Virus record (IMG/VR): IMGVR_UViG_3300026519_000009
Location: 1-64,000 of that record
Strand: one strand, 5' to 3'
From: a virus
DNA: 64,000 nt
Part shown: in pieces, positions 8,402 through 50,324 of the stretch
Layout: the number at the start of each line of letters is the position of its first letter
Numbering within the stretch: the stretch's first letter is position 1
The notes under the pieces: model-generated
Database searches by the model: none
Seen by the model: the letters and a program-made list of their open reading frames with translations, nothing else
What the model was told of the DNA's origin: nothing
Position numbers and translations under genes: made by a program

Positions 8402-8829
8402 CTAAAATGCAGAAATACCACCGCCAAATTCAGCGAGCTGAATTTGGCGGTGGATTCGCATAATGATCACACATTATGCTGTCGGCAACTGTTGGCAACC
8501 TTCCGTGTTCCGTTGGTAGCCCATAGACACCTCCTACGATCGTTTCGCTTCACAAGTGGAGAATGTTCATCGCTGCATTGACAACGCGCTCATGTATTGT
8601 TCCACGCTTGATTGACAACAAACGCCTTTTGAATCAATACTTTGCGTTTGTTGTCATTGACACGAAACTTTAATGTCTTCATGACTTTATTGTCGGAATG
8701 AATGCACTTTTTCACATAAACGGTGTACCATAGTTAAATGTCAGATCAAGAACTAAATTCACTATGGTGCCTATCCAACCACTTCCAAATCAGCAAGATG
8801 AATTTGGAAGTGGTATTCCGGTAACTTGG
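8402..8829 (-). mobile_element. Decayed tnpB element with a left end on both sides, between divergent genes
   Basis: Reverse-complement similarity to 3063-3723; hairpins at about 8418-8453 and 8779-8813; both ends abut ATAAATA motifs. Confidence 0.85.
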
Positions 8830-8836
8830 ATAAATA
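8830..8836 (+). promoter_or_regulatory. Putative T4-like late promoter (ATAAATA)
   Basis: Motif recurs upstream of structural genes (12554, 23699, 26064, 45831 and several minus-strand sites); resembles T4 TATAAATA. Confidence 0.6.
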
Positions 8837-8859
8837 GAATAAATTAATGGATATTTAAT

Positions 8860-9240
8860 ATGGCGCACCAAACTAATCTTTACCGAGGCTACTCATCATT
8901 TAACTTTCAAAGCGATAAAACCTTTGCATTGCGCGATGTTGAACTCGTTCAGACGGAATTACTGGCCCATATATTTACCACCAAGGGGTCACGGGTCATG
9001 ATGCCAAATTTTGGCAGCAATATCCCAACAATGGCATTTGAACCATTAGACGAAATGATAGTTGATGAAGTTTATACCGAATTATTAAATATTTTTGACT
9101 ATGATCCAAGAGTTGAAGTGGTTTCATTGCGTGTTATCCCGGACTTCGACAATAATTCAATAGAGGCACGTGCTAGATTACGATATATCGAATTAGATAC
9201 TGTCGATGACTTCGACCTAAATATAGACTTTGAAAATTAA
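8860..9240 (+). CDS. Baseplate wedge subunit, GPW/gp25 family
   Basis: IFTTKGSRVMMPNFGSNIP..AFEPLD...YDPRV motif. Confidence 0.9.
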   Translation: MAHQTNLYRGYSSFNFQSDKTFALRDVELVQTELLAHIFTTKGSRVMMPNFGSNIPTMAFEPLDEMIVDEVYTELLNIFDYDPRVEVVSLRVIPDFDNNSIEARARLRYIELDTVDDFDLNIDFEN

Positions 9241-9267
9241 ATAAAACATACAACATGAGAAATTATA

Positions 9268-12200
9268 ATGGTTAATGAAATTTCAAGAGCTGAAGCATGG
9301 ACACGCGCACATGAGGTGTTCACACGTGTAAATTTTAATGCATTTGACTATAATACAATTAAGGAAAGCCTACTGGACTATATGAAGCTATATTTTCCAG
9401 AAGACTTTAATTCGTATATCGAATCATCCGAATTTATTGCAATTCTTGAACTATTTGCATATGTTGGTGAATTATTAGCATACCGGTTGGATTTAAACGC
9501 ACATGAAAACTTCATTACCACGGCTGAACGCAAAGAATCAATTTTACGATTAGCTAAATTAATATCATATAGTGCTTCGCGTAATGTTCCAGCGCGGGGG
9601 TTAGTAAAAATAACATCTATACAAACAACTGAACAGATTTTTGACGCACAAGGTAGGAACTTAGCTAATACAAATTTAATATGGAATGACTTAAACAACC
9701 CAGACTGGAAAGAACAGTTTCTTACGGTAATGAATCGTGTATTAGAACAACCATTCGGTACGGTTACACCAAATGAGCGGGTACAAATAGAAGATGTATT
9801 GTTTGAATTATACACATGGAATAATCAGCCATTATCTGGAAATGGGATAACCACGTTTAAGTATTCAATTCCTGCTGCGGGCACCACATTTCCACTTGAA
9901 TTAGTACCGGTGGCACTTACCGCAGCATCACCAATAGAAAAGCGACCTGAACGAAATGGGAAATTCTCATTATTATATGGTGCTGATGGTCTTGGTGATG
10001 GTTCCGATACAACCGGGTTTTTCCTGTACACCAAACAAGGAACATTGCAAGTTCGTGAAGCTAATTTCGACGGTCTCACCACAAACCAAACATTTGATGT
10101 AGCTACGAATAATATTAATGAAACTGACGTTTGGTTAAACAATGTAGACCCTAATACCCGTGAAATCATTAGCACAAATCCCTTTGCCCAACAATTACCT
10201 CACCTTGATAGTAATACCGGTCGGTTTGGAGAATGGTCAACCGTTAATGCGTCAAATACACAAAATATCTTCTTTAATATTGTCAATAAACGCCAACAGT
10301 TTGAAATTGAAACATTAGATAACGACCAAATTAGATTAATATTCGGGGATGGTGAATTTTCGGATATTCCAAACGGTGCTTTTGATATTTGGTATAGAAT
10401 TTCTGCAAATAGTAATAGTGCAATTCCACAAACGTCTGCGAATGAGCTCACCGCAAGCTTTACGTATTTAGATATTAGCAACACAACACAAACGTTTACC
10501 TTTACCTTTGCATTAATCAATTCGCTACAGAATGCATCGGTCTCCGAAGATATTGAACATATTAGACGTGTTGCGCCTTCGGTGTACTACACACAGGATA
10601 GAATGGTAAATGGTAGGGACTATAACTCGTTTATGCTACAAGACCCATCTATATTAAAATTACGTGCGGTAAACCGAACATTTTCGGGTGACTCAAAATA
10701 TATAGCGTGGCATGACCCAAAAGAATATTACGAAGATGTAAAAATATTCGGGGAGGATATGGCACTGTATTGGATAAATAATGTTGTGGAGAATGGTGGA
10801 CTAATTACCTCCAATACCGCGCTTACTTCATCTGAAGTTATTTCAAACCTAATAGAACCATTACTATGTAGTTCTGACTTATACAATATAATGATTGGTT
10901 TATTTCAAAACGCATCAATGCAATTAGTGGAACATTGTACGTTTACACCAGCCGAAGTGTCAGTAATTCAATCTGCTTTAGATTTTGCTGCCACATCTTC
11001 CAATCCACAAGTAGACTTATATTTTTCGGCTACTGGTGATGAATGGACGGTGGGCGAAAGCATATCATACACCGATTCTGTATTTTTGATAAGAATAGAA
11101 GCAATTTTCACCGCTAGTAGCTTATCTGGATGGACTATACGTTGGGCGACCAGTAGAATGAATGTTCAAAGTCAAACTACTAGATTTAGAAATACAAATA
11201 CAACCTCACGAATCGTCAACTTTGATACACTAAATTCAAATGATGATAATATTTTAATACTTAATGCAAACGCAAATGGCAGTGAAAATGCGTTATTGGG
11301 TTCAAATAAAAAATATAATGTATTAGGTCAGGAACTCGTAGAACAAAATCTACCAAATGCTGGATTACCGGATGATAATCGTCTTTCAGTGATACCGACC
11401 GATACGGATGATGATGGTATTCCGAATGACATAGAACAAACGGATTTATTAAACGCAATATACACCACCGTCATAGCAGTTGCTGGTACGGGAATATTAT
11501 TTGACTTTCAATCACTATCCAATCCTGCACCCGGCACACAGCTTCCTAATGCAAATGCAATGTATTTTATGGAAAATACACATTTGGAAAGTGTTTCGGT
11601 TAAGGTTAATAATACAACCATTACTACGTGGGTACCCGGTCCAGTTATTCCAGGGACAAACGAAATTCATTCAATAATAATCACATCACCGCTTTCCGTA
11701 AGCGATATTCTCGAAATATCAACTAAACGATTTGTTTATTTTCATCGCCCAACCATTACCGATCAATGGGTACCTGTTGTCGATAATAGCGCAAATCGTG
11801 CGTTATGGTTTGCAGATTCATTGAACCTTTTATATAAACGCGAAGAAGGACGATTTCCGCTAAACTTCGCATGGTTCTATACAACGCCTAGGTTTCATCT
11901 CGTAGACCCCGCCGCTAGTAACATAATTGATATGTTTATAATCACAACGTCATATTATCAAGAACTTACGCGATATCTAAATAATAGCACTACTATTATG
12001 CCAACATTGCCAACACCACTTGACTTACGAACGTCATATGCTGGATTGTTACAAAATGCAATGATTTCGGACACAGTTATTTTACATCCTGGAACATTTA
12101 AAATACTATTCGGCGAGCGTGCAATACCTGAACTTCGTGGTGTATTTAAAGTTCTACGACCGGATAATACATCATTGACTGATAATGAGGTCAAAGTCAG

Positions 12201-12465
12201 AATAGTAGATACCATTAAACGGTTTTTTAATATAACGGATTGGAATTTTGGAAGCACGTTTTACTTAACAGAATTACTAGCCGCCATACATGTTGATTTA
12301 GGAGCGGAGATTCGATCAATTGTATTAGTCCCCACATTCACGACAAATCAATTTGGCGACTTGTTTCAAGTTCAAGCACGCGAAGATGAAATATTTATAG
12401 CAGATATTAATACAACCGATGTTGATATCATACAATCGTTCACCGCTGAAAATATAAGACAATAA
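9268..12465 (+). CDS. Baseplate wedge protein, gp6/baseplate-J-like
   Basis: FDYNTIKESL...ENFITTAERKESILRLAKLISY; FGDGEF; QDRMVNGRDY; directly follows gp25. Confidence 0.85.
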   Translation: MVNEISRAEAWTRAHEVFTRVNFNAFDYNTIKESLLDYMKLYFPEDFNSYIESSEFIAILELFAYVGELLAYRLDLNAHENFITTAERKESILRLAKLISYSASRNVPARGLVKITSIQTTEQIFDAQGRNLANTNLIWNDLNNPDWKEQFLTVMNRVLEQPFGTVTPNERVQIEDVLFELYTWNNQPLSGNGITTFKYSIPAAGTTFPLELVPVALTAASPIEKRPERNGKFSLLYGADGLGDGSDTTGFFLYTKQGTLQVREANFDGLTTNQTFDVATNNINETDVWLNNVDPNTREIISTNPFAQQLPHLDSNTGRFGEWSTVNASNTQNIFFNIVNKRQQFEIETLDNDQIRLIFGDGEFSDIPNGAFDIWYRISANSNSAIPQTSANELTASFTYLDISNTTQTFTFTFALINSLQNASVSEDIEHIRRVAPSVYYTQDRMVNGRDYNSFMLQDPSILKLRAVNRTFSGDSKYIAWHDPKEYYEDVKIFGEDMALYWINNVVENGGLITSNTALTSSEVISNLIEPLLCSSDLYNIMIGLFQNASMQLVEHCTFTPAEVSVIQSALDFAATSSNPQVDLYFSATGDEWTVGESISYTDSVFLIRIEAIFTASSLSGWTIRWATSRMNVQSQTTRFRNTNTTSRIVNFDTLNSNDDNILILNANANGSENALLGSNKKYNVLGQELVEQNLPNAGLPDDNRLSVIPTDTDDDGIPNDIEQTDLLNAIYTTVIAVAGTGILFDFQSLSNPAPGTQLPNANAMYFMENTHLESVSVKVNNTTITTWVPGPVIPGTNEIHSIIITSPLSVSDILEISTKRFVYFHRPTITDQWVPVVDNSANRALWFADSLNLLYKREEGRFPLNFAWFYTTPRFHLVDPAASNIIDMFIITTSYYQELTRYLNNSTTIMPTLPTPLDLRTSYAGLLQNAMISDTVILHPGTFKILFGERAIPELRGVFKVLRPDNTSLTDNEVKVRIVDTIKRFFNITDWNFGSTFYLTELLAAIHVDLGAEIRSIVLVPTFTTNQFGDLFQVQAREDEIFIADINTTDVDIIQSFTAENIRQ

Positions 12466-12485
12466 TTCAAAACTTTGAATTTTAT

Positions 12486-12553
12486 CTAAATTAACGAAAT
12501 GTCACTTCCAAATTCCGCTGGGCGGCCAACGGTGAGGGGATTTAGCAAATCGG
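12486..12553. mobile_element. Degenerate palindromic mini-element with two left ends
   Basis: TTTAT|CTAAATT...CACTTCCAAATT...GCAAATCGG|ATAAATA. Confidence 0.55.
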
Positions 12554-12586
12554 ATAAATAATTAAATAATTGGAGAGCAACTTACC

Positions 12587-15500
12587 GTGCCGAGTGATAA
12601 TAAAACAGATTATATGATAAAATTTATGGATTTACTGGAATTATTACCAGAGCCATATCAATCTGATGTTAATATAAGTGTAGTTAATAACCTTTTTAAT
12701 CGTTTTTTAACGAAAAAAGAGACGGTGCGCGTCTCTGGTTATATTGGTGTTGGTAATCAAAATGCTCTTACCCCTAGACGAATTAAAGAAAATGATATTC
12801 ATCGTCAAGCGTTTCAACTTCAACCAATATTATATGACAAAATTGGTACAATTGAACACATGGCATCGTGGAAGGATATTCAAAATGAAACGACACGACT
12901 TGGAATAAACATTGACGATTTTGCAACGTGGGGCGCAAGTGAAACCTTTAATTGGGTGCCACCAATTGATATCAATAAGATTATTAACTATCGTGACTAT
13001 TATTGGGTCGATACCGTAGGTAGTCAACCACAATATATTACCGTTCGTAGTCGCTGCGCAGTAGCGACAAGTCTGGCAAACTTTTGGGGGCAAATAATAA
13101 CACAATACGGTGAATTATTTCCAATAACTGAAATACGTGAGATTGACGACACCAGTGCATTACAAACATATTCTATTGTGTCGATTAATACAGGCACTGG
13201 TAATGTTGTTATTACAGGTGATGCCACAACCGATATTGTTAATGGTAATTTTTTTAACATATCATCAACATTAAACAACAATGGTACCTACCAAGTAAAT
13301 ATGGCACCGGTATATGATGGTGTTACAAACACTACAACATTAGACGTAAGTGGTTTAATTGCGGATGAAAATATTGGATTAGTAACACTTAGACGATATG
13401 ATAAGCTGGTGATTGGTCCAAATGACAATACACCTACCGGTGATTATAGTACGCTATTTGAAGAAGGGTTTGTTTTTTTTATGAGGCAACCAACAAACCC
13501 AGAACAAAATAATCAATTTGTAACGGTAATTAGTTCAACGTTTGACCCAAACAATGCAAACACAATAGTTAAGATCGGATTAACAACTACCGATAATACT
13601 GTGGCAGCTAGTAGTATGGTTTCATTGGTTGAACAAAATGCAATATATGTCGATGCCCGAAATTGTCAATGTGGCGTTGGGGTAGATGGCTGGGATGATG
13701 GTGTTTTATGGGACGATAACCCATCTAATCCAATATGGGGGGATGCGGAAGGTGCATTAGGGTCACCCATCCCTGATGGAATTTCGGATTATCAAAATTT
13801 AATTAATCGCATATCAAATGCCGGTCCACCTGCTTTGCCGGGAATTCAAAATGAATTATGGTTTGATACCATTGGTGATATATTATATCAATATGATACG
13901 GTAGGCGGTTGGAAGATCATTTGGAACTCTTTTAGTACATTACTATCCGATGTAACCGGACAAGTATTATGGGATTTATCGCAAAATTGCGACGAAGCCA
14001 TTCGTATACCAGCCATGGATCAATGGATTCTTGAAAATAAATGGGTTCATAAAAATGATATAACTAACTTTGCTTCGGTACGTAGAGCCACCCAACCTAT
14101 TATAGAATATGACTGGGACTTAGAGTTAAACGAATGGACATTTACCAAATATCGCTGGGGATACCGTAGTGAAACAAATGGTACCTTCATAGAAACAACA
14201 GAACTTCCACCTTTTATAGAATTAGAAGAAATAGTATGGTGGGAACTGGATACTACTGATATTACGAATAGTACTGTAATCCTTGACTCGCGTTATGGTG
14301 ATCAAAGTGCCTGTTTCGCAGCAAACACCCGATTTCATATTGGTAACACTATTATTAATGAAGTTGACTATGTTGAATATAAAAAACCGTCAATTGCCAG
14401 TATGTTCCCATATAGAACATATGTGAAATTTAAAACACCAATCGTAGGGTCAACCGGTGACTTTAGTATAGGAACCCCTAATAGTTTGTCATTAACACCA
14501 GTTGTAACAAAACAAGGTGATCTTTGGGGAGGATACGGTGTTCATTGGATATTTTTAGGCGCAAATGATACAGTACCTGTTCCACACCAAACGGATAATC
14601 CTGATGTTGCAATTCTGGATACTGCGTTGGTGTCTACTATTGGAAGTCCTCCTATATATGAAACACGCGAATCATTATATGCGCAAGAATTTCAATTATT
14701 AGCACCATCTACAACAATATTGGAATTAAGTAATATTGTTCCTACTAATGATACTAGATCATTACAAAGAAAGGCATTGTATAATTTCGATGATATTCGT
14801 GTTTATTTAAGCGATATCACAAATGGAAATATTGTTCGTCAATTCGGAACGTATGAAGAAATAGGAGAAGTTGTTGTCGATATTATCGGAATCGATGACG
14901 TATTAAACGAATTTATAATAGGTGAAGACTATTCAACATTATATACAGCAGGGGATACAATACGATTACAGGAAAATAATACGGTTGGTACACAAGACTA
15001 TACGGTTGCGGGCGGTGCGTCAAATCCTAATCGTATTCGCGTAACAACCGCGCTTGCCGGAATATCCATAACCGGACAAATAGTGAATATATCGAATCCT
15101 GTTACTACCGAATTATATCCAAATATCGATTTCGTAAATACACGAAATATTTCAATTTATGTTCGAGGGATACGCTTCTTAACCCCTGTGTTAGGCGGAC
15201 AAAATGTTACAATAGAAGTCGGTGAAGCATCAATAAATGAATTAGACCGTCATGCACTTAGAGTGCGCACTATTGAGGATGAAGCACAATATAATATTGT
15301 TGGTGACTTAGCTATTAGTACAATAAAATATAGAAAAGTTGAACAAGTAAAAACAAGTGACAATCAATATCCTTTATTTGATATTTTTACAGCAACGGGC
15401 GAAGCTGCAAATCGTGCCAATCCTATATTTGGATATAAAACGTCAAACACCGCTCCTATTAATCAAACAGGACTACGAATAGTTTTCGATGCAAGCACGC

Positions 15501-18500
15501 TGGTATATGAATTTGATCAATTTATTTTAGATGCAGATAATAGTGAATTATTTGCATATCGTGACTATTCTAATAAAAAAACAGATTTTTGGTATAATCC
15601 AGAAACAAATGAAATGTTGTTCTGGCACGGCACCGAATGGAGCAGTCGCACGGCGATGTCTGAGCATTATAGAAATGCTGTTATTAGTAGTATTGAACCG
15701 TCATTAATTGACCGCGCAATCAATGGCCTATATTGGTATAACACTACAACAAATACGCTATTTATTAGATCAATAGACCCAATATCCAATATTGGTACGT
15801 GGAATCCAATATTGGATATTGATACCACGACGACTGATACCAATTTACAAACAATATGGAAAGGCGGGTTGAACAATGATCAATATGTGCCTGAACGTGT
15901 TGATTGGTTAAATAGAACAAATAGTGAATATAATACTGAAATGTCTGCCTTTATTGACGGTAGAGTTAATACTTTATTGACGGGTGACACAACCCTAAGT
16001 ATCGCCGACGCAACAACGCAAGCATCCATTGATTGGTTTACTAGTCAGGAAAATGTGTTGTCACCGACCGGCATATGGGTCGGTGATTGGGAAATACCTG
16101 ATCCCTTATATCATAATAATTTACACGAAAATAAGAAATGCATTACAAGTAGGGACTTGTTAACACATTTCACCACCATTATTGAAAGTCAACCGACGAT
16201 TCCCGGATTTAATGGTGATAAAAACGCAATGTTCAATTTAATTCCAACGACGGGTGTTAATTTTGCACTAGGCGGTACAATAAAAGAATTCAATGATGGT
16301 TTCGATACTTTTCTATCTTCAACCTTCGTAAATAATGTAACACCTAGACGATTAATTGAGTTCGCGCATGATCAATATGAAAGTTTATTGAATAGCATTA
16401 AAGAAAGTTATCGGGCAAATGCGGTGCGCCTATTTACCGATTTATCCCCTAATAATATAGTAAACATATCTGGTTATATTTCAAATGAAATAATAGCTAT
16501 ACACGAGTTAAATGATGCGGCGGCATTTATATATGGGGATAGTACGACATTCAATGATATCCCCGGTGCCAATGATCTTGGTGTTCGGAATTGGATAGCA
16601 ACATTACCGTATTTGCGTCTATTGCATCGAAGATTGCCCGTTAGAATAATTAACGAGGTATTATCGCTGGATGAGATAATACATCACGATGGTCATCGGG
16701 GGGCATATTCATTAACCGATACTGCGGAAAATGTAATTGTTCAATTAATTATTAATACTGATGATAATCGAAATGGGATTGATACTTTAGGTAGAAATTC
16801 AATAGCAAACCCACCGAATAATATAGCTGATTTTGCTGCCGAATTTAATACCGATGCGAATAATCGCGGTGGTGTTTATTGGTGGAACACGACAACAAGT
16901 ATATTATATCGCTATACCGTAGCTGAATCTGGAACAAATACACCTATATTAGATTATCCTGATGGAACGCTATGGATGGATTTAACGCTTGGTAATGAAG
17001 TACTACGCATAAAATCAACAAGTACGAGTGGTGTGATATCTTGGGATGTCGCTGATGGATTATCGGTAGGCGATGGAAGATTTCATAATGGCACAACGGT
17101 TAATGATTTTAACACGGCAACAGTATCCACATGGCAAGAAGTTAACTTAAATAATTTATTGGGTGACCTTATATTCGAGCTTGAAACCCGTCTGTATAAT
17201 AATGCACCCAATAATCCGCAACTTAGCTATAATACCTCATTAGTGGAAACAACGTATCCGAATGACCACGCATTATATTTAGAGCAGGCATTTTTAGATC
17301 ATGTATCCCAACTAAATATACAAACCCCATATCAAAATACAGCGTTCAATATTTCTGATCCATTTACATGGAATTATAAGCATTCAGCAGGAGGCGGTGG
17401 GTTCGCTATACTCGAGGCGGATGGACTTACGAACTCTTTTTTAATATCGGGTAATCAATTATTCTTTTTTGATCCATGTTCGGCCTCCGCCACCGGATCA
17501 CCGATAACATATCCTGCATGTGTTCCAGGGGGGACAACAGCTACATTTTATATTAAAAACTCAGGCGGAAATGATGGAATTTGGACAACATTAAGTTCAA
17601 CCGTCGGTGATTTTACCGCATTCTATGATATATTAACCAATACCACCAGGATTTTTGTCCAAGGCAATGTGATGGATGATGCTACAGGTATTATTCATAT
17701 TGGATTATTACCAAGTCAAATATCATCAACAACGCCAAACAATCTAAATGATGGTTCGGAATCTGGTGGTGACTGGCGCGACTTGTATACCAAGTTATAC
17801 AATACACCATATCCAAATTTAGAACCATGGAAATTACAGGGCTATATCGATAAACCAACGTGGTGGGATGCGGAATATCTTAACACAAATGCATTACAAT
17901 GGGGCGACCGCGTATGGAAGTATAAGCACGGGTTTGAACTTATAAGTGCCGACAACTTAAGTAATGATAGTGTAGATGGTATACACGGTTCATTTAATAT
18001 TTCTGGAAACTTTAATACTGTTTTTACAACAGGTCATTCGTTTACCATAGATTCATCAATCGGATCACCGAATAACGATGGTACGTATATCACAGGTATG
18101 CGCGAAATAATTACTAATGTTAATATAGGTAGTGCTGGTACTGCATCTATAGAAATCGATGATGTCAGCAATTTAGCAACTGCGATATATCTACCGTCAA
18201 TGATATTTTCTGTAATTCAAACACCTGTTCTACCAGCAATAAATAATACAATTACAAAAACATATTCAATTACCAGCGTAAATAAAATAGGCTCCATATT
18301 TACAATAGCGGTAGCGGAAGAAATATTGGTTGGAGATATTATTCCAGCAACAAGTGTTATTAATGGAGCATTATACTTACCAACGTCCAACATCACTAAA
18401 GTGAAAATAGCTGGTGCCGTGACAACCAGTAGTGGGAATGGAAGACTAATAAAATCCGATAGTTTTGGACTTGGAATGTGGGAGAACATAAGGATTGGTG

Positions 18501-30362: not shown

Positions 30363-31384
30363 CCGTTGTTAAAATAGTAACAAAATGTAACAAGTGTTTT
30401 TTGTTACTGATTATTCACAATGTCAACGAGCTTGCCAAGATGATCTTTGGACTGACGGCTCTCTTTTGTGCGTTTTTGGCCTCCTTGCAACGCATGGCGA
30501 CCATACTCTTTTAAATTATTTGCTGCATTAAAATCACGATCCATATTAACACCACAATCACAACTATACAACCGTTCCGACAATGTTAAATCGTTTTTTA
30601 ATTGTCCGCAGCCACTACATACCGCGATTGCTTCCTTTCTTCTTTCGTGCCATTTCCGTTGCAACCGTGCCAACCGATTAAGATTGGATTTAAGGCATTG
30701 ATTAGCTGGGAAAATTGTCCCATTGCTAATCACTGCCAATTCTTTAATTCCTAAATCAACGCCACCAATTGCTTCGCGGTTATGATCCTGTGGATCATAT
30801 TCGTTGGTTTCAACCAAGATCGATGCGAAGTATTTTCCGGCGTGTTTACTAATAGTAACCTGCTTGGTCTGCCCGGCAAATCGTAATCGTTGCCGCATTT
30901 TTATCTTGGTCTTTAACTTTTCAATCCGTAGTTCTCGGCCAGCCACATCAAACTTTTCCGCTTCGCGCAAGGCAAATGAGTCACGAACACCCCGTCGTTT
31001 GAATCGGGAAAAGCCCGGTGTCTGTCCCTTCTTCACCCGACGAAAGAAATGACTAAAGGCATTATCCAAATCATCAATCGCATTGCGCGTAACACGCGAT
31101 GACACCTCATTGTACCATGGAAACGTAGGTCTAATAACTCTCATGAAATGCTGATAACCAGCAGCTTTCGACCACTTATTCTCTGGATGACTAAAATGCG
31201 CCAGCAATTGATTATAGCAATGCCGCCGATGACCACAGGCCATATCCAAATATTGGATATGGCCTGCTGTAGGTCGCAATTCAATTTTGTGTGCTAGTAA
31301 CATAGTAGTATTTATCTACAAAATGTAACACGACTTGTTACATTTTGTCAAGTTTAGTTACATTTTAATCAACTGTTGGCAGCC
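30363..31384 (-). mobile_element. IS607-like non-autonomous tnpB element inserted at a GG in the nrdB leader
   Basis: Subterminal AAAATGTAAC repeats at both ends; GG at both junctions; removal restores AATAATAAGG-TAAATCATA-ATG. Confidence 0.7.
30404..31303 (-). pseudogene. tnpB: tnpB (third family) with deletion of the RuvC-II region
   Basis: HKIELRPT N-terminus; GVDLGIKELA; jumps directly to CSGCG...DRDFNAANN. Confidence 0.85.
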
Positions 31385-34087: not shown

Positions 34088-34093
34088 GCGTTG

Positions 34094-34153
34094 TTGAAGC
34101 GACTACCACCAAATCAGCAAGCTGAATTTGGAAGTGGTATTCCGGCAACTTGG
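34094..34153 (-). mobile_element. Palindromic mini-element copy
   Basis: TTGAAGCGACTACCACCAAATCAGC-aa-GCTGAATTTGGAAGTGGTATTCCGGCAACTTGG. Confidence 0.85.
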
Positions 34154-34158
34154 GTATT

Positions 34159-37711: not shown

Positions 37712-37772
37712 CCAAGTTGCCGGAATACTACTTCCAAATTCAACAAGCTGTATTTGGAAGTAGTCGCCTCAC
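37712..37772 (+). mobile_element. Palindromic mini-element copy
   Basis: ATTAT|CCAAGTTGCCGGAATACTACTTCCAAA...TTTGGAAGTAG-TCGCCTCAC with a compensatory stem change. Confidence 0.85.
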
Positions 37773-37786
37773 GTATACTAATATGA

Positions 37787-38146: not shown

Positions 38147-38148
38147 AA

Positions 38149-38871: not shown

Positions 38872-38911
38872 TTAGTATCCATTGATAATCATACATTGTA
38901 TTGTTATTTAT

Positions 38912-39357
38912 CCAATTTGCCGGAATACCACTTCCAAATTCAGCTTGGTGAATTTGGAAGTGGATGGATAGGCACCATTAGGACGATCTTGCACTTGTAT
39001 ATATTGCTTTAATATTTCAATTGGGGCAATAATTAAGTGAATTTAGTTCTTGAATTGATATTTAACTATGGTACACTGTTTATATGAAAAGAGCAATCAT
39101 TCCCGACAAAATAAAGCCATGAAGACTTTAAAAATTCGCGTCAATGACATCAAGCACACGGTTGCCAACAGTATTGAACCAAAGGGGGGGGTTGCGGTTG
39201 CCAACAGTCAATCGGGTGTTGATGGACACAAAACATAAATGATCAACAAAAATAGTAAGTGAAAACGAATTAGTGAAAACACCGAAGACATAATGAGCGA
39301 CCATTGTGCGAATCCACGTTCAAGCGCAGATCGCTGATTTGGTGGTGGTCGCTTCAA
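38912..39357 (+). mobile_element. Decayed IS200/IS605 tnpB element with both hairpins
   Basis: TTTAT|CCAATTTGCC; left hairpin; tnpB promoter and 5' remnant; right hairpin; TCGCTTCAA supplies the stop of the next gene. Confidence 0.88.
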
Positions 39358-39932
39358 TAGTTAACAATTCCTGCGTGATTTAGTGCTTTAACGAGTGATA
39401 GTAGGTGCTTACATACCCCAGGAACTTGTTTTGGATTAACCGGTCCCCTATTTGAACCTTGAACTTTTTGGTATGGTTTGGGTGCTCTTCCTATTAGGCT
39501 TTTATCCTTAGCATTGAAATAACTAAATCGGTAATAGAAATCTAAACAATTACATCTAACCCGGCATGTATGTGCCGTTAAATGTATTGCATTCATATTG
39601 TATTCTTCACCATCTTTTGCGGTGAACGTCACGTTGTCCGGTAAATTTTCGTTTGAAAATTCAACGTTATTGAATATAATTGAAGTGTTATAATTGGTAC
39701 CATCGCTACTTGCGAGACCTATCACGTTTAAATTTTTGGTGCCTATAAATGGCAATAATTCCAATTTAACTATTCTAACCGGGTCGATTGCATTTTGGCG
39801 CTTTGCAGATACCGGGATAAAATTCAGCACATTTTGTTCTAAATCCGAAAATGTTGATTGTTCACATAAAACAAATTTATCAAGTTGATTGTGTATTCGT
39901 TGGCCACGTATAAGGTAATGATCATTTTTCAT
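39354..39932 (-). CDS. SWIM-type zinc-finger protein
   Basis: VRCNCLDF...GVCKHL; GGATAAATA 5 nt upstream of MKNDHY. Confidence 0.7.
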   Translation of the reverse strand: MKNDHYLIRGQRIHNQLDKFVLCEQSTFSDLEQNVLNFIPVSAKRQNAIDPVRIVKLELLPFIGTKNLNVIGLASSDGTNYNTSIIFNNVEFSNENLPDNVTFTAKDGEEYNMNAIHLTAHTCRVRCNCLDFYYRFSYFNAKDKSLIGRAPKPYQKVQGSNRGPVNPKQVPGVCKHLLSLVKALNHAGIVNY

Positions 39933-39944
39933 AGTGGTATTTAT

Positions 39945-40000
39945 CCAAGTTGTCATTAAAGCGGTTGCCAACGGTCGCCAACTGTGCAATCACTTTTCAA
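39945..40000 (+). mobile_element. Decayed mini-element left end carrying two 10-bp inserts
   Basis: TTTAT|CCAAGTTGTC...GG-TTGCCAACGG-TCGCCAACTG. Confidence 0.5.
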
Positions 40001-40094
40001 TTTTCGGTGAAATTATTTTAAATTTTTAAAAATTAGTGGAACTTTTTTGAATATACAGCGTCTTTACTATTTTAACAACGTGTGTACGTTCAAA

Positions 40095-41693: not shown

Positions 41694-41720
41694 AATCGTA
41701 TCCTTTTTTTAAATAAATTT

Positions 41721-43685
41721 TTACCCAAATACCCGCAATTCTTTAAACCTTCGTCGAATCAAGGTACCACCAGAACTAAATAAAATCGCTCGCGCGTTCG
41801 TTCCATCCGATATAATAGTGTACATACGCTGTGAATGTGGGAGGTTTCCGGTCCCCGTGGCAGGGGGTGTGGATGAGACATTATTACCATCAAAAATTTT
41901 AGTCCAGGCACTATCTATAAATACTTCAAATATAACTTGACCATTTATCAAATCTTCGTTTACTACCTGATACATTCCAGCTGGAAATACGTATGTAGAG
42001 CCAGGGACATTTGCTAATGTTCGTAAAGTATATACATTAGTAAAACTAAAACCACCAGCAATAAGATTATCAACATATTGCTTATTTGCAGCATCCGAAT
42101 TATTAGTCGGTGTGTCCACGTTAACAATTTTAGCGTTTGTCATATCTAATTCACTATCAAATTGAACTGGCCCTGTAATTCTGGCATCGCCAACCACATG
42201 TAACTTATTTCCTGGTGCCGGTGTTCCTATTCCAACGTCACCAGTCGTGGTTATTCTAAACTGTTCGGTTGCTACACCAGCACTTCCGGTTTCTATTACA
42301 AAGTCCCCATAATTTGCACGTAGTCGTAGTATATCGCCAAAATCATTGTGCTGTATAAGACTACGAGGTAGAACATTTCCAGCTTGATGGAATTGTATTG
42401 CAACATTTCCATTCGAGTTATTGTTCTCTAGGCGCAATGCTTCACCATTGCCGCCCGCTAAGGTTAGGACGTGTAACTTTGCGGCTGGTGCTGTCACCCC
42501 CATTCCAATATCACCACTAGACGTTATAACTAGATTTTTATTACCATTTGTTGAAAAACTAAGTGTTTGTCCAAGGTCAAATTCAATTGAATTATCACCA
42601 CCTGCGGAATTACCAAAGTTTATTAATCCGGTGGAAGGGTCGGTTAACGCATTAGTAGCCCGTATTGCGCCATTAATAGTAACTTCACCACTAGGCGCTA
42701 TAAGTAGTTTTTCATTACCATTTGTTGAAAAACTAAGTGTTTGTCCAAGGTCAAATTCAATTGAATTATCACCACCTGCGGAATTACCAAAGTTTATTAA
42801 TCCGGTGGAAGGGTCGGTTAACGCATTAGTAGCCCGTATTGCGCCATTAATAGTAACTTCACCGGTGGTCTCAAAAATATTTAGACGTATTTGATTATTT
42901 TTAACTATATCGAAACTATTACTATTATTAATTATATAATCACTGGCACCTAACCCGAAATTAATTCGACCATCCCCACTATTGTTAACTGTCAGGTCAT
43001 CATTGATTGTAGTTGCACCATTCAATTCAGTATCACCAACTACTTCAAATGCTGTGGATGGTGATGGTTGATTAATTCCAACTGACCCATTACTTAACGC
43101 GGTTAGTACACTCCCCCCTGCACTTTGTAAATCAATAATAGCACCTGCCCCCTGTTGATTTACAATAAGCAATGTTCCCGGTTCATTCGCTTGCATAATA
43201 TCAGCAACATCGCTGCGTAAAAATTGAGTACTATCAAGGCCGTCCAACAACGTTGCATCACCACCAGTCGGAATTGACCATATATTACCTAATGAAAAGG
43301 TATAAGTAACATTTGCAGAAGTATTGAACCATTGTTGTCCAATAACAGGATTAGTTATTCCATTACCAAGACCAAGATCATTTTCATCTTTTGGAAGAAC
43401 CGGATCGGTCACAGGGTCATAATCCATTAACATCGTAGCTGGATTATAATCACCGAAAACCTTTGCTGGGCAAGCATAATTCTCCAACAATCTGAATATA
43501 TTTTGATTTACGCCCTGTCCCCAACTTACAGTACCAAATCCATATAATGATAAGTCGGAATCCCGCGCAATCCCGCCTGCACCATTTAATTCACCAGAAC
43601 CAATAGTAAATGATGATGAAGTACGATTTGCAACTGATTCTGAATCATCATATGCTGTATGTTTTATTAAATATGTTTCAGCCAT
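41721..43685 (-). CDS. Tail-fibre-like virion protein (N-terminus paralogous to previous gene)
   Basis: LYGFG...QNIFRLLENYA; DATLLDGLDSTQFLRSD; GxVGIGT repeats. Confidence 0.75.
   Translation of the reverse strand: MAETYLIKHTAYDDSESVANRTSSSFTIGSGELNGAGGIARDSDLSLYGFGTVSWGQGVNQNIFRLLENYACPAKVFGDYNPATMLMDYDPVTDPVLPKDENDLGLGNGITNPVIGQQWFNTSANVTYTFSLGNIWSIPTGGDATLLDGLDSTQFLRSDVADIMQANEPGTLLIVNQQGAGAIIDLQSAGGSVLTALSNGSVGINQPSPSTAFEVVGDTELNGATTINDDLTVNNSGDGRINFGLGASDYIINNSNSFDIVKNNQIRLNIFETTGEVTINGAIRATNALTDPSTGLINFGNSAGGDNSIEFDLGQTLSFSTNGNEKLLIAPSGEVTINGAIRATNALTDPSTGLINFGNSAGGDNSIEFDLGQTLSFSTNGNKNLVITSSGDIGMGVTAPAAKLHVLTLAGGNGEALRLENNNSNGNVAIQFHQAGNVLPRSLIQHNDFGDILRLRANYGDFVIETGSAGVATEQFRITTTGDVGIGTPAPGNKLHVVGDARITGPVQFDSELDMTNAKIVNVDTPTNNSDAANKQYVDNLIAGGFSFTNVYTLRTLANVPGSTYVFPAGMYQVVNEDLINGQVIFEVFIDSAWTKIFDGNNVSSTPPATGTGNLPHSQRMYTIISDGTNARAILFSSGGTLIRRRFKELRVFG
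42540..42863 (-). repeat. 150-bp identical direct repeat with 174-bp period inside fibre gene
   Basis: 42540-42689 equals 42714-42863. Confidence 0.9.
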
Positions 43686-43721
43686 GGTATCCTCGTGTTT
43701 ATTGATTATATTATTATTTAT

Positions 43722-43865
43722 CCAAGTTGCTGAAATACCATTTCCAAATCAACAAGCTGAATTTGGAAATGGATGGATAAGAAGAATTTTGGTTGGATTC
43801 CAATTGAAGCTACCATCACCAAATCGTCTCGCTCATTTGGTGATGGTCGCCAACAGTAGCTTCAA
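43722..43865 (+). mobile_element. Two-hairpin mini-element (left end, short spacer, right end)
   Basis: TTTAT|CCAAGTTGC; hairpin CCATTTCC/GGAAATGG; second hairpin; ends CTTCAA. Confidence 0.85.
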
Positions 43866-43889
43866 GTATTAATCATAACAATTAGCACG

Positions 43890-44558: not shown

Positions 44559-44562
44559 AATA

Positions 44563-45015: not shown

Positions 45016-45022
45016 ATTATGC

Positions 45023-45685: not shown

Positions 45686-45723
45686 ATGTACAACATCCTA
45701 TTAACTATTATCTTATTATTTAT

Positions 45724-45775
45724 TCAAGTTACCGAAATACTACTACTGGTGGTTGGTCGTTTCGAACCGTTAATT
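45724..45775 (+). mobile_element. Decayed mini-element
   Basis: TTTAT|TCAAGTTACCGAAATACTAC...GGTCG. Confidence 0.5.
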
Positions 45776-45849
45776 TGACATTATATATCAATATCGCTTC
45801 AATCTTTTTTTTTATGTATGATAAATATACTAAACTAGGGAATATAATT

Positions 45850-46092
45850 ATGCATGATTTTTCACTAATTAAACAGTTAAATACCGTTGACGTTAAGCAA
45901 CCGTGTGGATTGGCGGAAGGAATTGTGTACCAGCAATATGAGCTAAAGATTGAAGGTGGTTTAGTGACTGTCAATATCCCATTACGCGAAAGCGAACATT
46001 TTGAAACAGCATTGTCTAAACACGACAGCGAAATAACACGTCAATCATTAAAATTATTATTAAGAGAATTTCGCGGAATCCGCGAACGCTAA
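45850..46092 (+). CDS. Hypothetical protein
   Basis: GATAAATA and GGGA upstream of MHDFSL. Confidence 0.55.
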   Translation: MHDFSLIKQLNTVDVKQPCGLAEGIVYQQYELKIEGGLVTVNIPLRESEHFETALSKHDSEITRQSLKLLLREFRGIRER

Positions 46093-46107
46093 TACTGGAT
46101 ATTAAAT

Positions 46108-46602
46108 ATGGGATTTGTTCTAACACAACCAACAACAGGTAACATAGGCGGCGGGGGAATACCCGGACTAACGGTATCCATGATAAATGGGCAAAACGTT
46201 CTAACATTGGAAGATACTACACGTGGTAATAAAATATTATCTGTTTCGGATAATCCAGTCGTTTTTTCCGAAAATGTATTATCAAACCTTGACTGGTTGG
46301 CCGTTGGTGGGGCAAGGGATGCGGATAGTGGTTTTATCACAACATTAGATGCAACTATTGTTGGCATTTCGGCACATTGTGAAAATACTGGCGGAAATTC
46401 TAAAAATATTCATCTTTTTGTTGATGGTGCCGACCTTGGCTCACTTGGAACACTAGGTGGCGGTACAAATGCAGTGATTAATGATACTATTTTGGATATA
46501 GATATTAATCAGGGACAACGTGTAAGATTACGCGCAGTGGACGGTATACCGGGAAATATCCAAGATACCGTAATTAAACTAACATTAAAGTGGCGCGGCT
46601 AA
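46108..46602 (+). CDS. Probable virion (beta-rich) protein
   Basis: 164-aa Gly/Thr/Asn-rich ORF. Confidence 0.55.
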   Translation: MGFVLTQPTTGNIGGGGIPGLTVSMINGQNVLTLEDTTRGNKILSVSDNPVVFSENVLSNLDWLAVGGARDADSGFITTLDATIVGISAHCENTGGNSKNIHLFVDGADLGSLGTLGGGTNAVINDTILDIDINQGQRVRLRAVDGIPGNIQDTVIKLTLKWRG

Positions 46603-46838
46603 ACTTGAGTTATAATGACTTTTAATTCGTTTAATGTTTTTTCTTCACCATTAACTACTATAATCGGAACGGTTCTTGGTGTACGGTCTATAATATCCGT
46701 TATTTCTTCTATTGAAATATTGGTACCAATCGTCAAATAATTATACGGGATTCCCTTATCTGTAAGCATAGCTTCTAATTTACGACAATTGCCACACACT
46801 TTTGTACCAAATATATCAATTTTCATCATTTTCACCAT
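46599..46838 (-). CDS. Glutaredoxin
   Basis: CGNC active site; RTVPII cis-Pro motif. Confidence 0.85.
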   Translation of the reverse strand: MVKMMKIDIFGTKVCGNCRKLEAMLTDKGIPYNYLTIGTNISIEEITDIIDRTPRTVPIIVVNGEEKTLNELKVIITQV

Positions 46839-46854
46839 TAATTAATTTTGTTAT

Positions 46855-46912
46855 CCAATTTGCTGAATCCACTTCCAATTTCAGCTTACTGATTTGGAAG
46901 TGATCGCTTCAA
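46855..46912 (+). mobile_element. Mini-element inserted in the 3' end of a membrane-protein gene
   Basis: GTTAT|CCAATTTGC...hairpin...TCGCTTCAA; excision restores a TAATG overlap with the glutaredoxin start. Confidence 0.88.
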
Positions 46913-47330
46913 ATTTAAGATAAATTGTTTGAATTGTTGTATTAAACCGTAGACAGAAAATAAAAGTACTAATAACTGTCGCATTCATTACACTCCAGCC
47001 TACGCTGAAAATCGCCCATGTGTTTTCATTTGTCACAACAGGTAATATCAAAAGCGTTATAATATTAAAAAATATAGCGCAGGCGGAAAACCGAAGTAAT
47101 GAACGATATCCGGTAATAACGGAGTTAATAAAGTTATTTTCTGCCCGCCATAATAATATTTCTGATTCGTTCGTCACACCGGTAGTCTTGTCCATGGCAG
47201 CGTGAATTAGCAACCGTGTTCGTAATGCACACTTAATAGTGGTAATATATGAACGACATATGACTACACACATGACACACAGCAACAATATTAATAATAT
47301 AATCCCATATTCATCCATTACATTCTCCAA
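46881..47330 (-). CDS. Membrane protein (about 3 TM); last ~10 aa element-derived
   Basis: Hydrophobic segments. Confidence 0.6.
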   Translation of the reverse strand: MENVMDEYGIILLILLLCVMCVVICRSYITTIKCALRTRLLIHAAMDKTTGVTNESEILLWRAENNFINSVITGYRSLLRFSACAIFFNIITLLILPVVTNENTWAIFSVGWSVMNATVISTFIFCLRFNTTIQTIYLKFEAITSKSVS

Positions 47331-47349
47331 ATGCCTATAATATAGTTAT

Positions 47350-47410
47350 CCAAGTTGCCTGAATACTACTTCCAAAGTGGGCTAGCTGAATTTGGAAGCG
47401 GTCGCTTCAA
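47350..47410 (+). mobile_element. Mini-element supplying the TGA stop of the Nudix gene
   Basis: GTTAT|CCAAGTTGCC...GTCGCTTCAA. Confidence 0.85.
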
Positions 47411-47838
47411 TTAACTATGTTTTTTGTGATCCATCGCGTAGCAGCCTCTACAATAGGACGATGCAATAGTCTACCTTCCTCATAAAATTCGGAAGGTGTC
47501 ATCCATCGCGTTGATGCAATTCCGGGTTCAGGATCACCAAACAACAATGGATCATTTACTTCTGCCACAAAAACAGTAGTTCGTCCAAGAAAAATCCCAA
47601 GTGAATAAATGTCACCAATTATATTGGGTACAAACAGACCAACTTCTTCTTGGGCTTCGCGAATAGCAGCATCAATCGCCGATTCATTGTTTTCAATTTT
47701 ACCCTTACATAATTGATAAGTATTACCCCCGAAAGTATGCGAGGCTGGACGTTGAAATAACATTTTAAATGTATTTGAATCTTCACTTAAATGATAGGGT
47801 ATCAATCCAGCTCTATATATTTTTTTTTTATTTCTCAT
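47407..47838 (-). CDS. Nudix hydrolase
   Basis: Nudix box GKIENNESAIDAAIREAQEEVGL. Confidence 0.9.
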   Translation of the reverse strand: MRNKKKIYRAGLIPYHLSEDSNTFKMLFQRPASHTFGGNTYQLCKGKIENNESAIDAAIREAQEEVGLFVPNIIGDIYSLGIFLGRTTVFVAEVNDPLLFGDPEPGIASTRWMTPSEFYEEGRLLHRPIVEAATRWITKNIVN

Positions 47839-47873
47839 AATAGTGATCGTTCCAATATATTATAGATATTTAT

Positions 47874-47937
47874 CCAATTTGCCAAAATACCATCACCCAA
47901 TTTTGCAAGCAGAATTTGGTGATGGCATTCGCGTCAA
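47874..47937 (+). mobile_element. Palindromic mini-element copy
   Basis: TTTAT|CCAATTTGCC..CCATCACC...GGTGATGG..CGCGTCAA. Confidence 0.8.
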
Positions 47938-47945
47938 CGTCTGCA

Positions 47946-48179
47946 TTAATGTGCGATATGTTTTTCATTAAACATATTATATTCTTTTAAATATCGTTGG
48001 GCACGCTTATCGTTTTCGCTACTACCAAGTTGCTTGCGCACCACATCAGAATCTTCAATCAACGATGCTTTAATTTTAATCGTATTCCTGCAAAAATTAA
48101 TTAAGTCATTCGCTGACGTATTTGTTCGGACGAATATAATAGTTGACGTATTATCGTGTTCCATTAGTTCAATTAACAT
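47946..48179 (-). CDS. Hypothetical protein
   Basis: 77-aa ORF overlapping the upstream gene. Confidence 0.5.
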   Translation of the reverse strand: MLIELMEHDNTSTIIFVRTNTSANDLINFCRNTIKIKASLIEDSDVVRKQLGSSENDKRAQRYLKEYNMFNEKHIAH

Positions 48180-48369
48180 GTTTGGTCACCACCATACGAA
48201 CAGGCAAACGTTTTTCGACAATTTTATATTGTTTCATGATAAGCTTATTTGCCACACTACGCATATCAGGTGTCATATTTTTGTCATTGCGTGTCATTAT
48301 TAATAAGTCGGAGGTAAGCTTATCTAATTGCCGATGCGTTTTTACTGATGAAAAATCTAAAATATTCAT
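48169..48369 (-). CDS. Hypothetical protein
   Basis: 66-aa ORF in a minus-strand run. Confidence 0.45.
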   Translation of the reverse strand: MNILDFSSVKTHRQLDKLTSDLLIMTRNDKNMTPDMRSVANKLIMKQYKIVEKRLPVRMVVTKHVN

Positions 48370-48548
48370 AATATATGTACTATCTCTGGTATAATTTATG
48401 GGAGATTAGGTAGATGTTAAAACAACTACCGCCCAACGTTGGTGTTCCGGCACAACAGTTCCACGATCAATAAATGTGTAGTTACTATTTCTTTCGGAAA
48501 AGATTAATGCCATTGCCTTATTCCTGAAAAACATCATAATTAAATTCC

Positions 48549-48917
48549 TTAAAGTGAAAGCATTTCGGTTACCCTGATTTTCCGGCGCAACGATTCAACA
48601 TATAAACGCTTAGCGCCGTCTATATCACTGGCTGAGTTTTCGGGGGGTGTAAACGTGTTAATTACCTTAATGTAGGGTGCGACAGGTTTACCTTCGCGGA
48701 TATCACGAACTACATATACAATCGACATTTTACCAGATTGTTTATTAATCGTTCGGTGGGCGGCATGTAATGACTGTGCGTATGGGATACCGATTTGAAA
48801 CTGTTCACAAAGCATTTTAATTGCGGTATTGCGCTTAATATGTTTAATTTCATCGAGATATGCGAATGCCAGCTGTCGTTTACTGTTTGGGTTAGATGGT
48901 CTTGCCATATTAATCAC
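48549..48917 (-). CDS. Basic hypothetical protein, possibly DNA-binding
   Basis: MARPSNPNSKRQ...; start may be at 48908. Confidence 0.55.
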   Translation of the reverse strand: MINMARPSNPNSKRQLAFAYLDEIKHIKRNTAIKMLCEQFQIGIPYAQSLHAAHRTINKQSGKMSIVYVVRDIREGKPVAPYIKVINTFTPPENSASDIDGAKRLYVESLRRKIRVTEMLSL

Positions 48918-49008
48918 CTGTTGTTGTAAGTCATCAGCATTATTACTGATTTAAACAAACTATATCATAATTATTCAACAACTGTCAACCATTTTTTAAT
49001 GGTTGTGA

Positions 49009-49389
49009 TTAGAATCCAGGTTTAATTTTCTTCAACTCCCAATATTTCCTATTCCCTATATGTCTAACACGATGAATTTTAAACTTCTTTGATGCTACCA
49101 TAGCATCTACCATTTTTGTAGTCATCCGTTTGCTATACGCATCCGTGGCGAACAAACTCACAATATTTCGTCGATTTGTCTTATATTGCGAATATGCAGA
49201 AAGCGCATTTATACTAGCTGCCATGGTTAAATTAGAATTCGATTTCATAAAATCCTTAACCATTTTATCAGTAATGTTTTTGCCACGTTTAGACACCTTC
49301 AATTCCCGAATTGAACGGGATATCGCTTCCATCAAATTAATGGCTTCAATATTAAGATATTCTTCCGTTATTTCTTTAAGTAAATCCAT
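49009..49389 (-). CDS. Hypothetical protein (LxE N-terminus, basic body)
   Basis: GAGG RBS; MDLLKEITEE. Confidence 0.6.
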   Translation of the reverse strand: MDLLKEITEEYLNIEAINLMEAISRSIRELKVSKRGKNITDKMVKDFMKSNSNLTMAASINALSAYSQYKTNRRNIVSLFATDAYSKRMTTKMVDAMVASKKFKIHRVRHIGNRKYWELKKIKPGF

Positions 49390-49402
49390 TTTCGCCTCAA
49401 TA

Positions 49403-49756
49403 TTATTCTACCGGTAATTCCTCGGGTGGTAGACCAAGCTTTTTCTGTAATTCATCCCGCTGCTCGGTATATGCTTTATTTATCACATCGTACTCTTTTA
49501 ACGCACGCTCTAGTTCACGCGCATATCCCAATAACACTTCCAGTGTGGCATGATAATGCTTTACTAAGGCACCGGGTTGAAGAATTTCTTCCTGCGTCAT
49601 ATCATGTATGGGAAGACTGGGGCGTGGTATGTGTGGCGGCTTTGGACTATACAATATAGGAACCAATGTTTCTTGAACTTCGGTCTTTACCGTTATTAAT
49701 TTTCCACCACAGCCAACCATCAATGTCATTAATATAATAATAATTATTTTTCCCAT
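49403..49756 (-). CDS. Outer-membrane spanin (Rz1-like lipoprotein)
   Basis: Lipobox LMVGC; Pro-rich segment; overlaps the upstream i-spanin-like gene. Confidence 0.7.
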   Translation of the reverse strand: MGKIIIIILMTLMVGCGGKLITVKTEVQETLVPILYSPKPPHIPRPSLPIHDMTQEEILQPGALVKHYHATLEVLLGYARELERALKEYDVINKAYTEQRDELQKKLGLPPEELPVE

Positions 49757-50190
49757 GATATCCCCTTTCGAATATTGCGTAAGTATTCAATACTAGCTTC
49801 GCATGTTGTTGGTGTCTTATTGGCAAGAATTTCATTTACCCTTTTATCGGTATTCACGCGGCTATCCCGTAGTGTATTTTTCAAACTTTTAATATTGTTT
49901 GCAAGGTTTTTTGATATCATTCGCCATTTATCAACTTCATTATTTCTATCAACAATACTGTCGGCAAGTGTATCATTCCCTTTTTTACAAATATCAATCG
50001 CATTATCCGCAGCAGCAAGTCTCTTCGTCAAGCTAGGTATGGTTTCAGCGCCAAAAAATATTCGGGCTTCAAACACATTTTGATATACTATTATAGCCAT
50101 CATACCACCAATGGCAATTGTTTTCCAGTTTGTTATGATAAACGGAACTATACTTTTAAAATTTAAAAGTTTTAATAAGAATAACGGCAT
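49744..50190 (-). CDS. Inner-membrane spanin (Rz-like)
   Basis: N-terminal TM, coiled coil, C-terminal PTTCEASIEYL. Confidence 0.7.
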   Translation of the reverse strand: MPLFLLKLLNFKSIVPFIITNWKTIAIGGMMAIIVYQNVFEARIFFGAETIPSLTKRLAAADNAIDICKKGNDTLADSIVDRNNEVDKWRMISKNLANNIKSLKNTLRDSRVNTDKRVNEILANKTPTTCEASIEYLRNIRKGISWEK

Positions 50191-50240
50191 AACAGATTCT
50201 CCACTTGATATAATTATATATCAAGTGGAGAATCTGTTAT
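50189..50240 (-). promoter_or_regulatory. Perfect 24-bp stem-loop masking the spanin RBS and start
   Basis: ATAACAGATTCTCCACTTGATATA-atta-TATATCAAGTGGAGAATCTGTTAT. Confidence 0.75.
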
Positions 50241-50249
50241 TTTTTGAAT

Positions 50250-50324
50250 TTACTGTTGGCAACCCTAAATTTCCGAAATGCCACTTCCAAATTTGGTTTG
50301 CTGAATTGGAAGTGGTCGCGTCAT
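50250..50324 (+). mobile_element. Mini-element copy with a 10-bp insert at its left junction; supplies a TGA stop
   Basis: CCACTTCCAA...TTGGAAGTGG-TCGCGTCAT. Confidence 0.75.

Follow-up and report, generated by a model that had tools for sequence, protein, structure and literature searches.

In the first 64 kb (the window) of IMG/VR virus record IMGVR_UViG_3300026519_000009, a 76.6-kb jumbo phage fragment (37% G+C, estimated to be 24% complete), nine short units of 10 base pairs (bp) lie scattered through DNA that also holds element F, a decayed transposon of the IS607 family. The units are true, derived insertions, and they have the sequence of the ten bases with which the left end (LE) of F begins. 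We propose that they are scars, that is, LE terminal decamers left at a GG dinucleotide after an IS607-family element had inserted and then been almost completely lost, a reading to which sequence comparison leads us to give a probability of roughly 0.6. The evidence is purely comparative and comes from one small phage lineage with ten units, one of which lies in a related fragment. In IMG/VR, this phage group consists of the record of the window (G000) and the fragments G001 and G003, both from metagenome 3300026519, and amounts to 152 kb of readable DNA. G001 and G003 have mobile elements in common with the window and zero backbone genes.

Ten-base-pair insertions behind GG

The loose motif YYRCCRACDG matches the window 14 times, against 3.1 matches expected, and none of 100 shuffled sequences reached this count. 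With a GG prefix, the excess becomes 9 matches against 0.09 expected, namely eight solo units and the tip of element F, and all nine sit immediately 3' of their GG target. The unit at 8479 directly follows another unit and is not counted among these nine; matches at 17601, 46301, 49958 and 54316 have no GG prefix and were treated as chance. A first reading made from the letters alone (the sequence-only reading) had listed the units, placed each behind GG or another unit and called for a count against expectation. We found a unit at every coordinate that it gave and its description correct in every detail checked; the GG that it saw in front of the units is the obligatory target of IS607 elements (PMC6188088; bioRxiv 10.1101/2023.11.20.567912).

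None of the units lies in real coding sequence. All are in non-coding or decayed DNA, and those at 39965 and 39975 fall only within a spurious, TTG-extended mechanical open reading frame (ORF) and lie upstream of the ATG at which the minus-strand gene at 39354 probably starts. When the unit in G003 is included, seven of the ten solo units end in AG (as CAACAG or CGACAG), two in GG and one in TG, and the 10 bp contain no AAAATGTAAC-type transposase-binding motif. Outside the window, on the minus strand of G000 at 69967-69976 and just upstream of a gene start, GG is followed by TTGCTAACTG; this may be an eleventh, diverged unit or a chance match, and the upstream ORF could take its stop codon from it.

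Taking the units out restores the sequences that they interrupt, which bears out the claim of the sequence-only reading that they behave as insertions. Without the unit at 43847, the hairpin that it splits (Table 1) becomes a perfect 21-bp stem with a folding energy of -35.2 kcal/mol, compared with -28.0 kcal/mol when the unit is present. Copy B, a decayed tnpB element, aligns to the unit-free copy A without gaps over the 3' stretch concerned once its three units (8479-8498 and 8510-8519) are removed, and removal of the units at 39162 and 39198 from the 5' region of copy C leaves only a poly-G difference of 2-3 nucleotides (nt) relative to copy A.

These reference copies belong to a set of five A-type tnpB copies in the window (3060-3720, 8400-8860, 38895-39370, 57177-57530 and 59358-60098), which are of the IS200/IS605 type because both of their ends are hairpins. 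All five are internally deleted and without tnpA, with ORFs of 182 and 127 amino acids that keep only the zinc-finger/TNB part; indeed, every tnpB copy in the window is truncated. When we searched for more phage relatives with the invariant 18-mer of this hairpin-ended family, only G001 was found. The hairpin at the LE of the A-type copies also occurs by itself as a ~60-bp repeat (CCACTTCCAAAT..ATTTGGAAGTGG), with about 20 or more instances in intergenic gaps between 1806 and 59407 (for example 8778-8836, 34095-34156, 43699-43779 and 50265-50327). These hairpins are inserted after TTATCCAAGT, which on the other strand resembles a late promoter.

Table 1. Positions in the window of the solo units, of the sequences that they interrupt and of element F
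Feature	Position	Strand	Context
Unit TTGCCGACAG	8479..8488	-	Distal unit of a tandem pair in decayed tnpB copy B; its removal makes copy B colinear with copy A
Unit TTGCCAACAG	8489..8498	-	Directly after GG (8500-8499), copy B
Unit CTACCAACGG	8510..8519	-	After GG in copy B; the tandem pair follows 11 nt downstream
Unit TTGCCAACAG	39162..39171	+	After GG in decayed tnpB copy C; 10 bases extra relative to copies A and B and to G001:50359
Unit TTGCCAACAG	39198..39207	+	After GG, inside copy C
Unit TTGCCAACGG	39965..39974	+	After GG; ends in a GG that precedes the unit at 39975
Unit TCGCCAACTG	39975..39984	+	In tandem with the unit at 39965
Unit TCGCCAACAG	43847..43856	+	Splits a hairpin
Unit TTGCCAACAG	50253..50262	-	After AGGG, beside a ~60-bp hairpin element
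Hairpin	43804..43865		Between two minus-strand genes; like the recurrent ~60-bp hairpins; target interrupted by the unit at 43847
Copy A	3060..3720	+	IS200/IS605-type tnpB element with hairpin ends and an internal deletion; contains no units; reference for copies B and C
Copy B	8400..8860	-	Hairpin-ended tnpB element, decayed; three units
Copy C	38895..39370	+	Hairpin-ended tnpB element, decayed; two units
Element F	30363..31382	-	Decayed IS607-family element between nrdA and nrdB; no tnpA
tnpB of F	30404..31303	-	299 amino acids; ~108 amino acids of the RuvC region missing relative to 387-amino-acid bacterial homologues

Element F and its relatives

The LE of F starts directly behind GG with CTGCCAACAGTTGATT (GG and CTGCCAACAG occupy 31384-31373 on the minus strand) and continues with three AAAATGTAAC-type motifs, each the motif or its complement. 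The right end (RE) contains one perfect copy of this motif or its complement with an adjoining partial GTTAC, and ends TTTTAACAACGG, its last six bases being the CAACGG at 30368-30363, again on the minus strand; both ends are as the sequence-only reading had quoted them. The junctions, GG/CTGCC...CAACGG/T, show GG on both sides, no target duplication and no terminal inverted repeats. The RE boundary is the same in three flanks, those in the window, G001 and G003, where the sequence is identical up to CAACGG and divergent after it, and all three known phage REs end CAACGG. Residues 1-216 of F TnpB are 65-71% identical to the TnpB of tnpA-tnpB elements. The GG junctions, the subterminal motifs and the homologous TnpB all place F in the IS607 family, whose serine-recombinase TnpA with a MerR-type helix-turn-helix F does not encode. 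Because F has no tnpA, and a Resolvase tnpA adjoins the homologous tnpB upstream in bacterial relatives, F is a non-autonomous derivative of the family. Elsewhere in the window, a ~110-bp repeated segment (2990-3040 and 57890-57999) carries one AAAATGTAAC-type motif and is possibly another relic of an F-type end.

The nearest TnpB relatives of F (63-71% identity) are found in metagenome-assembled genomes (MAGs) of Thiotrichaceae, Chromatiaceae and Endozoicomonadaceae, and their tnpB is preceded by a tnpA with MerR-type helix-turn-helix and Resolvase domains, the canonical IS607 arrangement. The sequence-only reading had staked its proposal on intact family members having the 10-mer at their left terminus, and we found a homologous decamer there: the LEs of intact, tnpA-bearing relatives start after (G)GG with CTAACAACAG, CTAAAAACAG, TAAGTAACAG, TAAGTTACAG, GTTTAAACAG or TTCGTAACTG. 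This decamer ends AAC(A/T)G, and the REs of the same relatives end (A/G)CGG. Judged by these ends, the unit is the lineage-specific version of an LE terminal decamer that the whole family possesses. In an Endozoicomonadaceae genome, 37 of the 39 occurrences of GG plus decamer are element LEs. There the decamer travels with the element and is therefore not a pre-existing target sequence, a possibility that we accordingly rejected for the units. Across 35 bacterial copies, the LE is always preceded by RGGG, and the base that follows the RE is T in 21 and never G; T also follows 5 of 7 scar sites, matching this preference. The units thus occupy the places where the left junction of an IS607-type element would be.

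The Endozoicomonadaceae MAG (G002, loci L015-L051) holds ~38 nearly identical IS607-family copies, with a T following the RE in 60%. At locus L055, an LE 24-mer is joined to a TTTTTTAG stretch, a larger collapse remnant. In a metagenome contig (L066:40-75), a tnpA-tnpB element has an RE-like TTTTTTAGCAACGG directly against its LE (GTAAGTAACAG..), and this junction belongs either to a tandem pair of elements or to an assembled circle.

G001 and G003 enlarge the window set by no more than a solo unit and two short remnants of an LE. The solo unit is in G003, where GG is followed by GTGCCAACAG and then TTATCAACAGTTG, the last 58 tnpB codons and an RE ending CAACGG; the element behind this solo unit is internally deleted. 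At G001:3417, a paralogous A-type copy carries TTGTCAACGGTTGAT after the same GG that precedes the unit at 39162 in copy C. It sits at the junction of a 175-bp deletion and represents either a 13-15-mer of the LE or a unit followed by the original sequence. G001 and G003 also each contain a diverged F-type LE of ~100 bp, starting with GG and then TTACTAGCTG or TTGCTAACCA. Remnants therefore exist in several sizes, among which the class of exactly 10 bp is recurrent, and this argues for a defined breakpoint and not for random decay. The two diverged LEs (G001:38840-38990, L106; G003:4630-4760, L102) carry TTGACA and GTTACATTT motifs and lie ahead of unrelated genes. The one in G001 has an RE-like ..ACATTACGG ~150 bp further on, so that it is possibly a miniature derivative or a co-opted promoter.

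Proposed routes from insertion to scar

In the reading that we favor, a serine transposase encoded in the unsequenced three quarters of the phage genome, or supplied by the host, would have integrated tnpA-less F-type elements at GG, preferably at GG followed by T. Their later loss would not have used the boundary GG but a breakpoint that lies in the LE exactly 10 bp further in. Transposases of the IS607 family are known for a strict GG target, the lack of a target duplication and scarless excision (PMC6188088; bioRxiv 10.1101/2023.11.20.567912). The IS607 transposase binds the subterminal motifs and hardly touches the tip (PMC6188088), and a transposase of the family has been seen to recombine non-identical core dinucleotides (bioRxiv 10.1101/2023.11.20.567912). 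As the route of loss we prefer, tentatively and at less than even odds, excision by the transposase through the AC-AG at LE positions 7-10, which is conserved in the whole clade. This AC-AG mimics the RE tip, (A/G)C-GG, at a distance of 10 bp, or one helical turn, from the true crossover, and pairing of its AG with the GG of the RE would produce a one-base mismatch that segregates into scars ending ...CAACAG and ...CAACGG.

The sequence-only reading had attributed the 10-mer to collapse or excision between two CAAC(A/G)G ends, and a transposase-independent slippage or microhomology deletion between CAAC(A/G)G (LE positions 5-10) and the CAACGG of the RE is a possibility that we rank somewhat lower than excision through AC-AG. 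Its arithmetic holds, since CAACAG and CAACGG are rightly spaced and a remnant made of the first LE bases and CAAC(A/G)G is exactly 10 nt long. The repeats may be brought together, as in the nearly precise excision of Tn10, by inverted AAAATGTAAC/GTTACATTTT motifs of the LE and the RE that lie at distances of 6 nt and 13 nt from them, and the phage elements of this group do decay by short-repeat deletions. The endings of the units, however, speak against a simple collapse, which within CAAC should keep the GG of the RE and would thus mostly give GG, and not the AG seen in most units. That the REs end in GG and most scars in AG fits the transposase route, or any route that leaves the LE decamer intact, better than it fits slippage inside CAAC. 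An imperfect repeat of 4-6 nt is moreover weak for ten identical outcomes, and slippage leaves the re-hitting of the same GG unexplained. Conversely, bacterial relatives that lack the CAAC/CAAC match (LE AAACAG, RE TAGCGG) also lack a scar excess, as slippage would have it.

The units are strongly clustered, seven of the nine solo units in the window lying in three clusters, two of which are strictly tandem. Given 635 GG sites in 9.5 kb of non-coding DNA, two or more exact re-hits of the same GG have a probability of ~0.001, and the five neighbor pairs within 40 bp were never reached in 100,000 simulations. Tandem units can arise because the GG to the left of a scar survives, so that the same site can be hit again. 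The excess suggests that insertion has hot spots, that LE-like scars attract new insertions, or that some units were duplicated in tandem. The last of these could be carried to the point where local tandem duplication or template switching copied the F LE tip or an earlier unit with no element ever inserted at the site. Such copying would account for the clusters, and the RE-LE junction of a TTG-type element would show a 10-bp periodicity (CAACG-GTTGC-CAACA-GTTGA). Yet the isolated units at 43847 and 50253 have no unit or element next to them, tandem partners differ at 1-3 positions, and we know of no mechanism that copies exactly 10 nt from a 2-nt GG anchor, all of which makes this explanation very unlikely.

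Explanations that dispense with scars altogether appear weaker still. The units might be binding sites for a phage or transposon protein, spread or kept for the regulation of nearby promoters or terminators: their core, GTTGCCAAC, is a 9-bp palindrome, they are found between genes, several of them close to sequences that resemble promoters or terminators. We give this little credence, because one unit breaks a 21-bp stem and five are inside two dead tnpB copies, unit orientation and distance to genes are inconsistent, and the identity extends, as in the LE, to the non-palindromic AG and the GG prefix. Even less can be said for insertion of the decamer during repair of double-strand breaks made by TnpB, although tnpB genes and guide-RNA regions are abundant in this genome. 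TnpB makes its cut about 15-21 nt away from the recognition motif, whereas the units stand right next to GG; the decamer belongs to the LE, which lies outside the guide RNA, and all tnpB copies in the window are truncated. We rejected break repair on the position of the units. A mobile 10-bp element or miniature inverted-repeat transposable element was rejected as well, as the units have no transposase-binding motifs and do not carry both ends, and so was an RNA family, none having been found with Rfam.

Several observations weigh against the reading of the units as scars. Joints at +10 conflict with the scarless excision published for IS607, and at least nine cycles of insertion and loss in 64 kb, together with the clustering, demand a very high flux or attraction to old scars. 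In the Endozoicomonadaceae genome, with ~38 young copies, at most 1-2 solo decamers stand against 4 control matches; the scar is therefore not a general by-product of the IS607-family transposase. A broader pattern for scar excess in four bacterial genomes was too degenerate, matched controls and was uninformative. Not one site turned up both filled and scarred, and none in an empty orthologous state: the 654-amino-acid neighbor protein, used as anchor for an orthologous-site search, has no relative in IMG/VR, and the uninterrupted stem as a query for an empty site gave only chance coding matches. Only two cases bear, indirectly, on a former occupation by a full element, namely the unit ahead of the truncated element in G003 and the TTGTCAACGGTTGAT at G001:3417. 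No serine recombinase (Resolvase domain) is encoded in the readable DNA of G000, G001 and G003, and no autonomous element with a TTGCCAACAG tip was found. In searches for the source element, the F LE extended to 18 nt had no other match in IMG/VR, a 17-nt LE pattern had four matches, all inside coding sequence, in 107 genomes from the order to which the nearest bacterial relative belongs, and a metagenome scan with F TnpB returned only bacterial-type relatives and G001 again. A 17-mer of the RE found only G001 and G003.

A more far-reaching version of the transposase route, which we regard as doubtful and judge less probable than slippage, would link the persistence of the scars to TnpB. The transposase would make the scars through the pseudo-crossover AC-AG, the scars would persist by escaping TnpB re-cutting, and they would attract further insertions. 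A scarless joint would be cut by the TnpB-guide RNA complex and re-homed, whereas a +10 joint, in which an RE-like CAAC(A/G)G separates GG from the old target, would escape re-cutting. Because its left GG is preserved, and a new terminal GG is often added beside an LE-like tip, the scar would draw further insertions. If this is true, one could read in the arrays the record of an arms race that the two halves of a transposon have fought inside a phage.

Known footprints and the source phage

Both transposon footprints and nearly precise excision have precedents. The sequence-only reading did not recognize this footprint type as a described one, and our literature search agrees with it, having turned up no footprint for IS607, the excision of which is described as scarless. 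F and the units share with the IS607 family the GG crossover and target, the absence of target duplication and terminal inverted repeats, the short subterminal motifs, the identity of the unit with the LE tip, and closest TnpB relatives that belong to canonical tnpA-tnpB elements. They differ in that a uniform 10-bp LE remnant recurs where published excision leaves none, and in that F is without tnpA and has a truncated tnpB.

Nearly precise excision of Tn10 leaves a 50-bp remnant through recombination between short repeats near the ends. As in our case, the element disappears almost entirely, and what is left at the target is a short terminal piece that is reproducible; here, however, the piece measures 10 bp, the parent belongs to the serine-recombinase elements and has no long inverted repeats, and the AG in which most units end is at odds with simple repeat slippage. 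In the footprints of Tc1/mariner, hAT and P elements, a few terminal element bases likewise mark former insertion sites. These eukaryotic footprints stem from the repair of staggered DDE-transposase cuts and are variable, whereas the units are uniform, come from one end only and are found in a phage. The very small dispersed repeats of cyanobacteria (21-27 nt) are also tiny, clean insertions inside other repeats and hairpins, but they are longer, form hairpins and have no known parent, while the parent end of the units is identified.

Because IS607-family elements are described as entering and leaving DNA unmarked, their past activity cannot be seen. With a uniform scar traceable to one end, former insertions could be counted; the scar would show a heavy IS607 transposition flux in a jumbo phage and would point to a second, imprecise route of excision. 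It would also bear on how a recombinase that barely contacts the transposon tip chooses its crossover site, and on which excision products escape TnpB-driven homing.

The phage itself has genes in the window for ribonucleotide reductase subunits, thymidylate kinase, phosphoribosyl pyrophosphate synthetase, gp25-like and gp53-like baseplate proteins, and a 3681-amino-acid ORF. Its host is probably among the large sulfur bacteria, judging from the nearest TnpB relatives. Deposited phage and plasmid collections held no near match to the region. Near-perfect tandem repeats of ~174 bp are present inside the 654-amino-acid ORF (42511-42863), and others of 36 bp inside a 318-amino-acid ORF (3879-4045).

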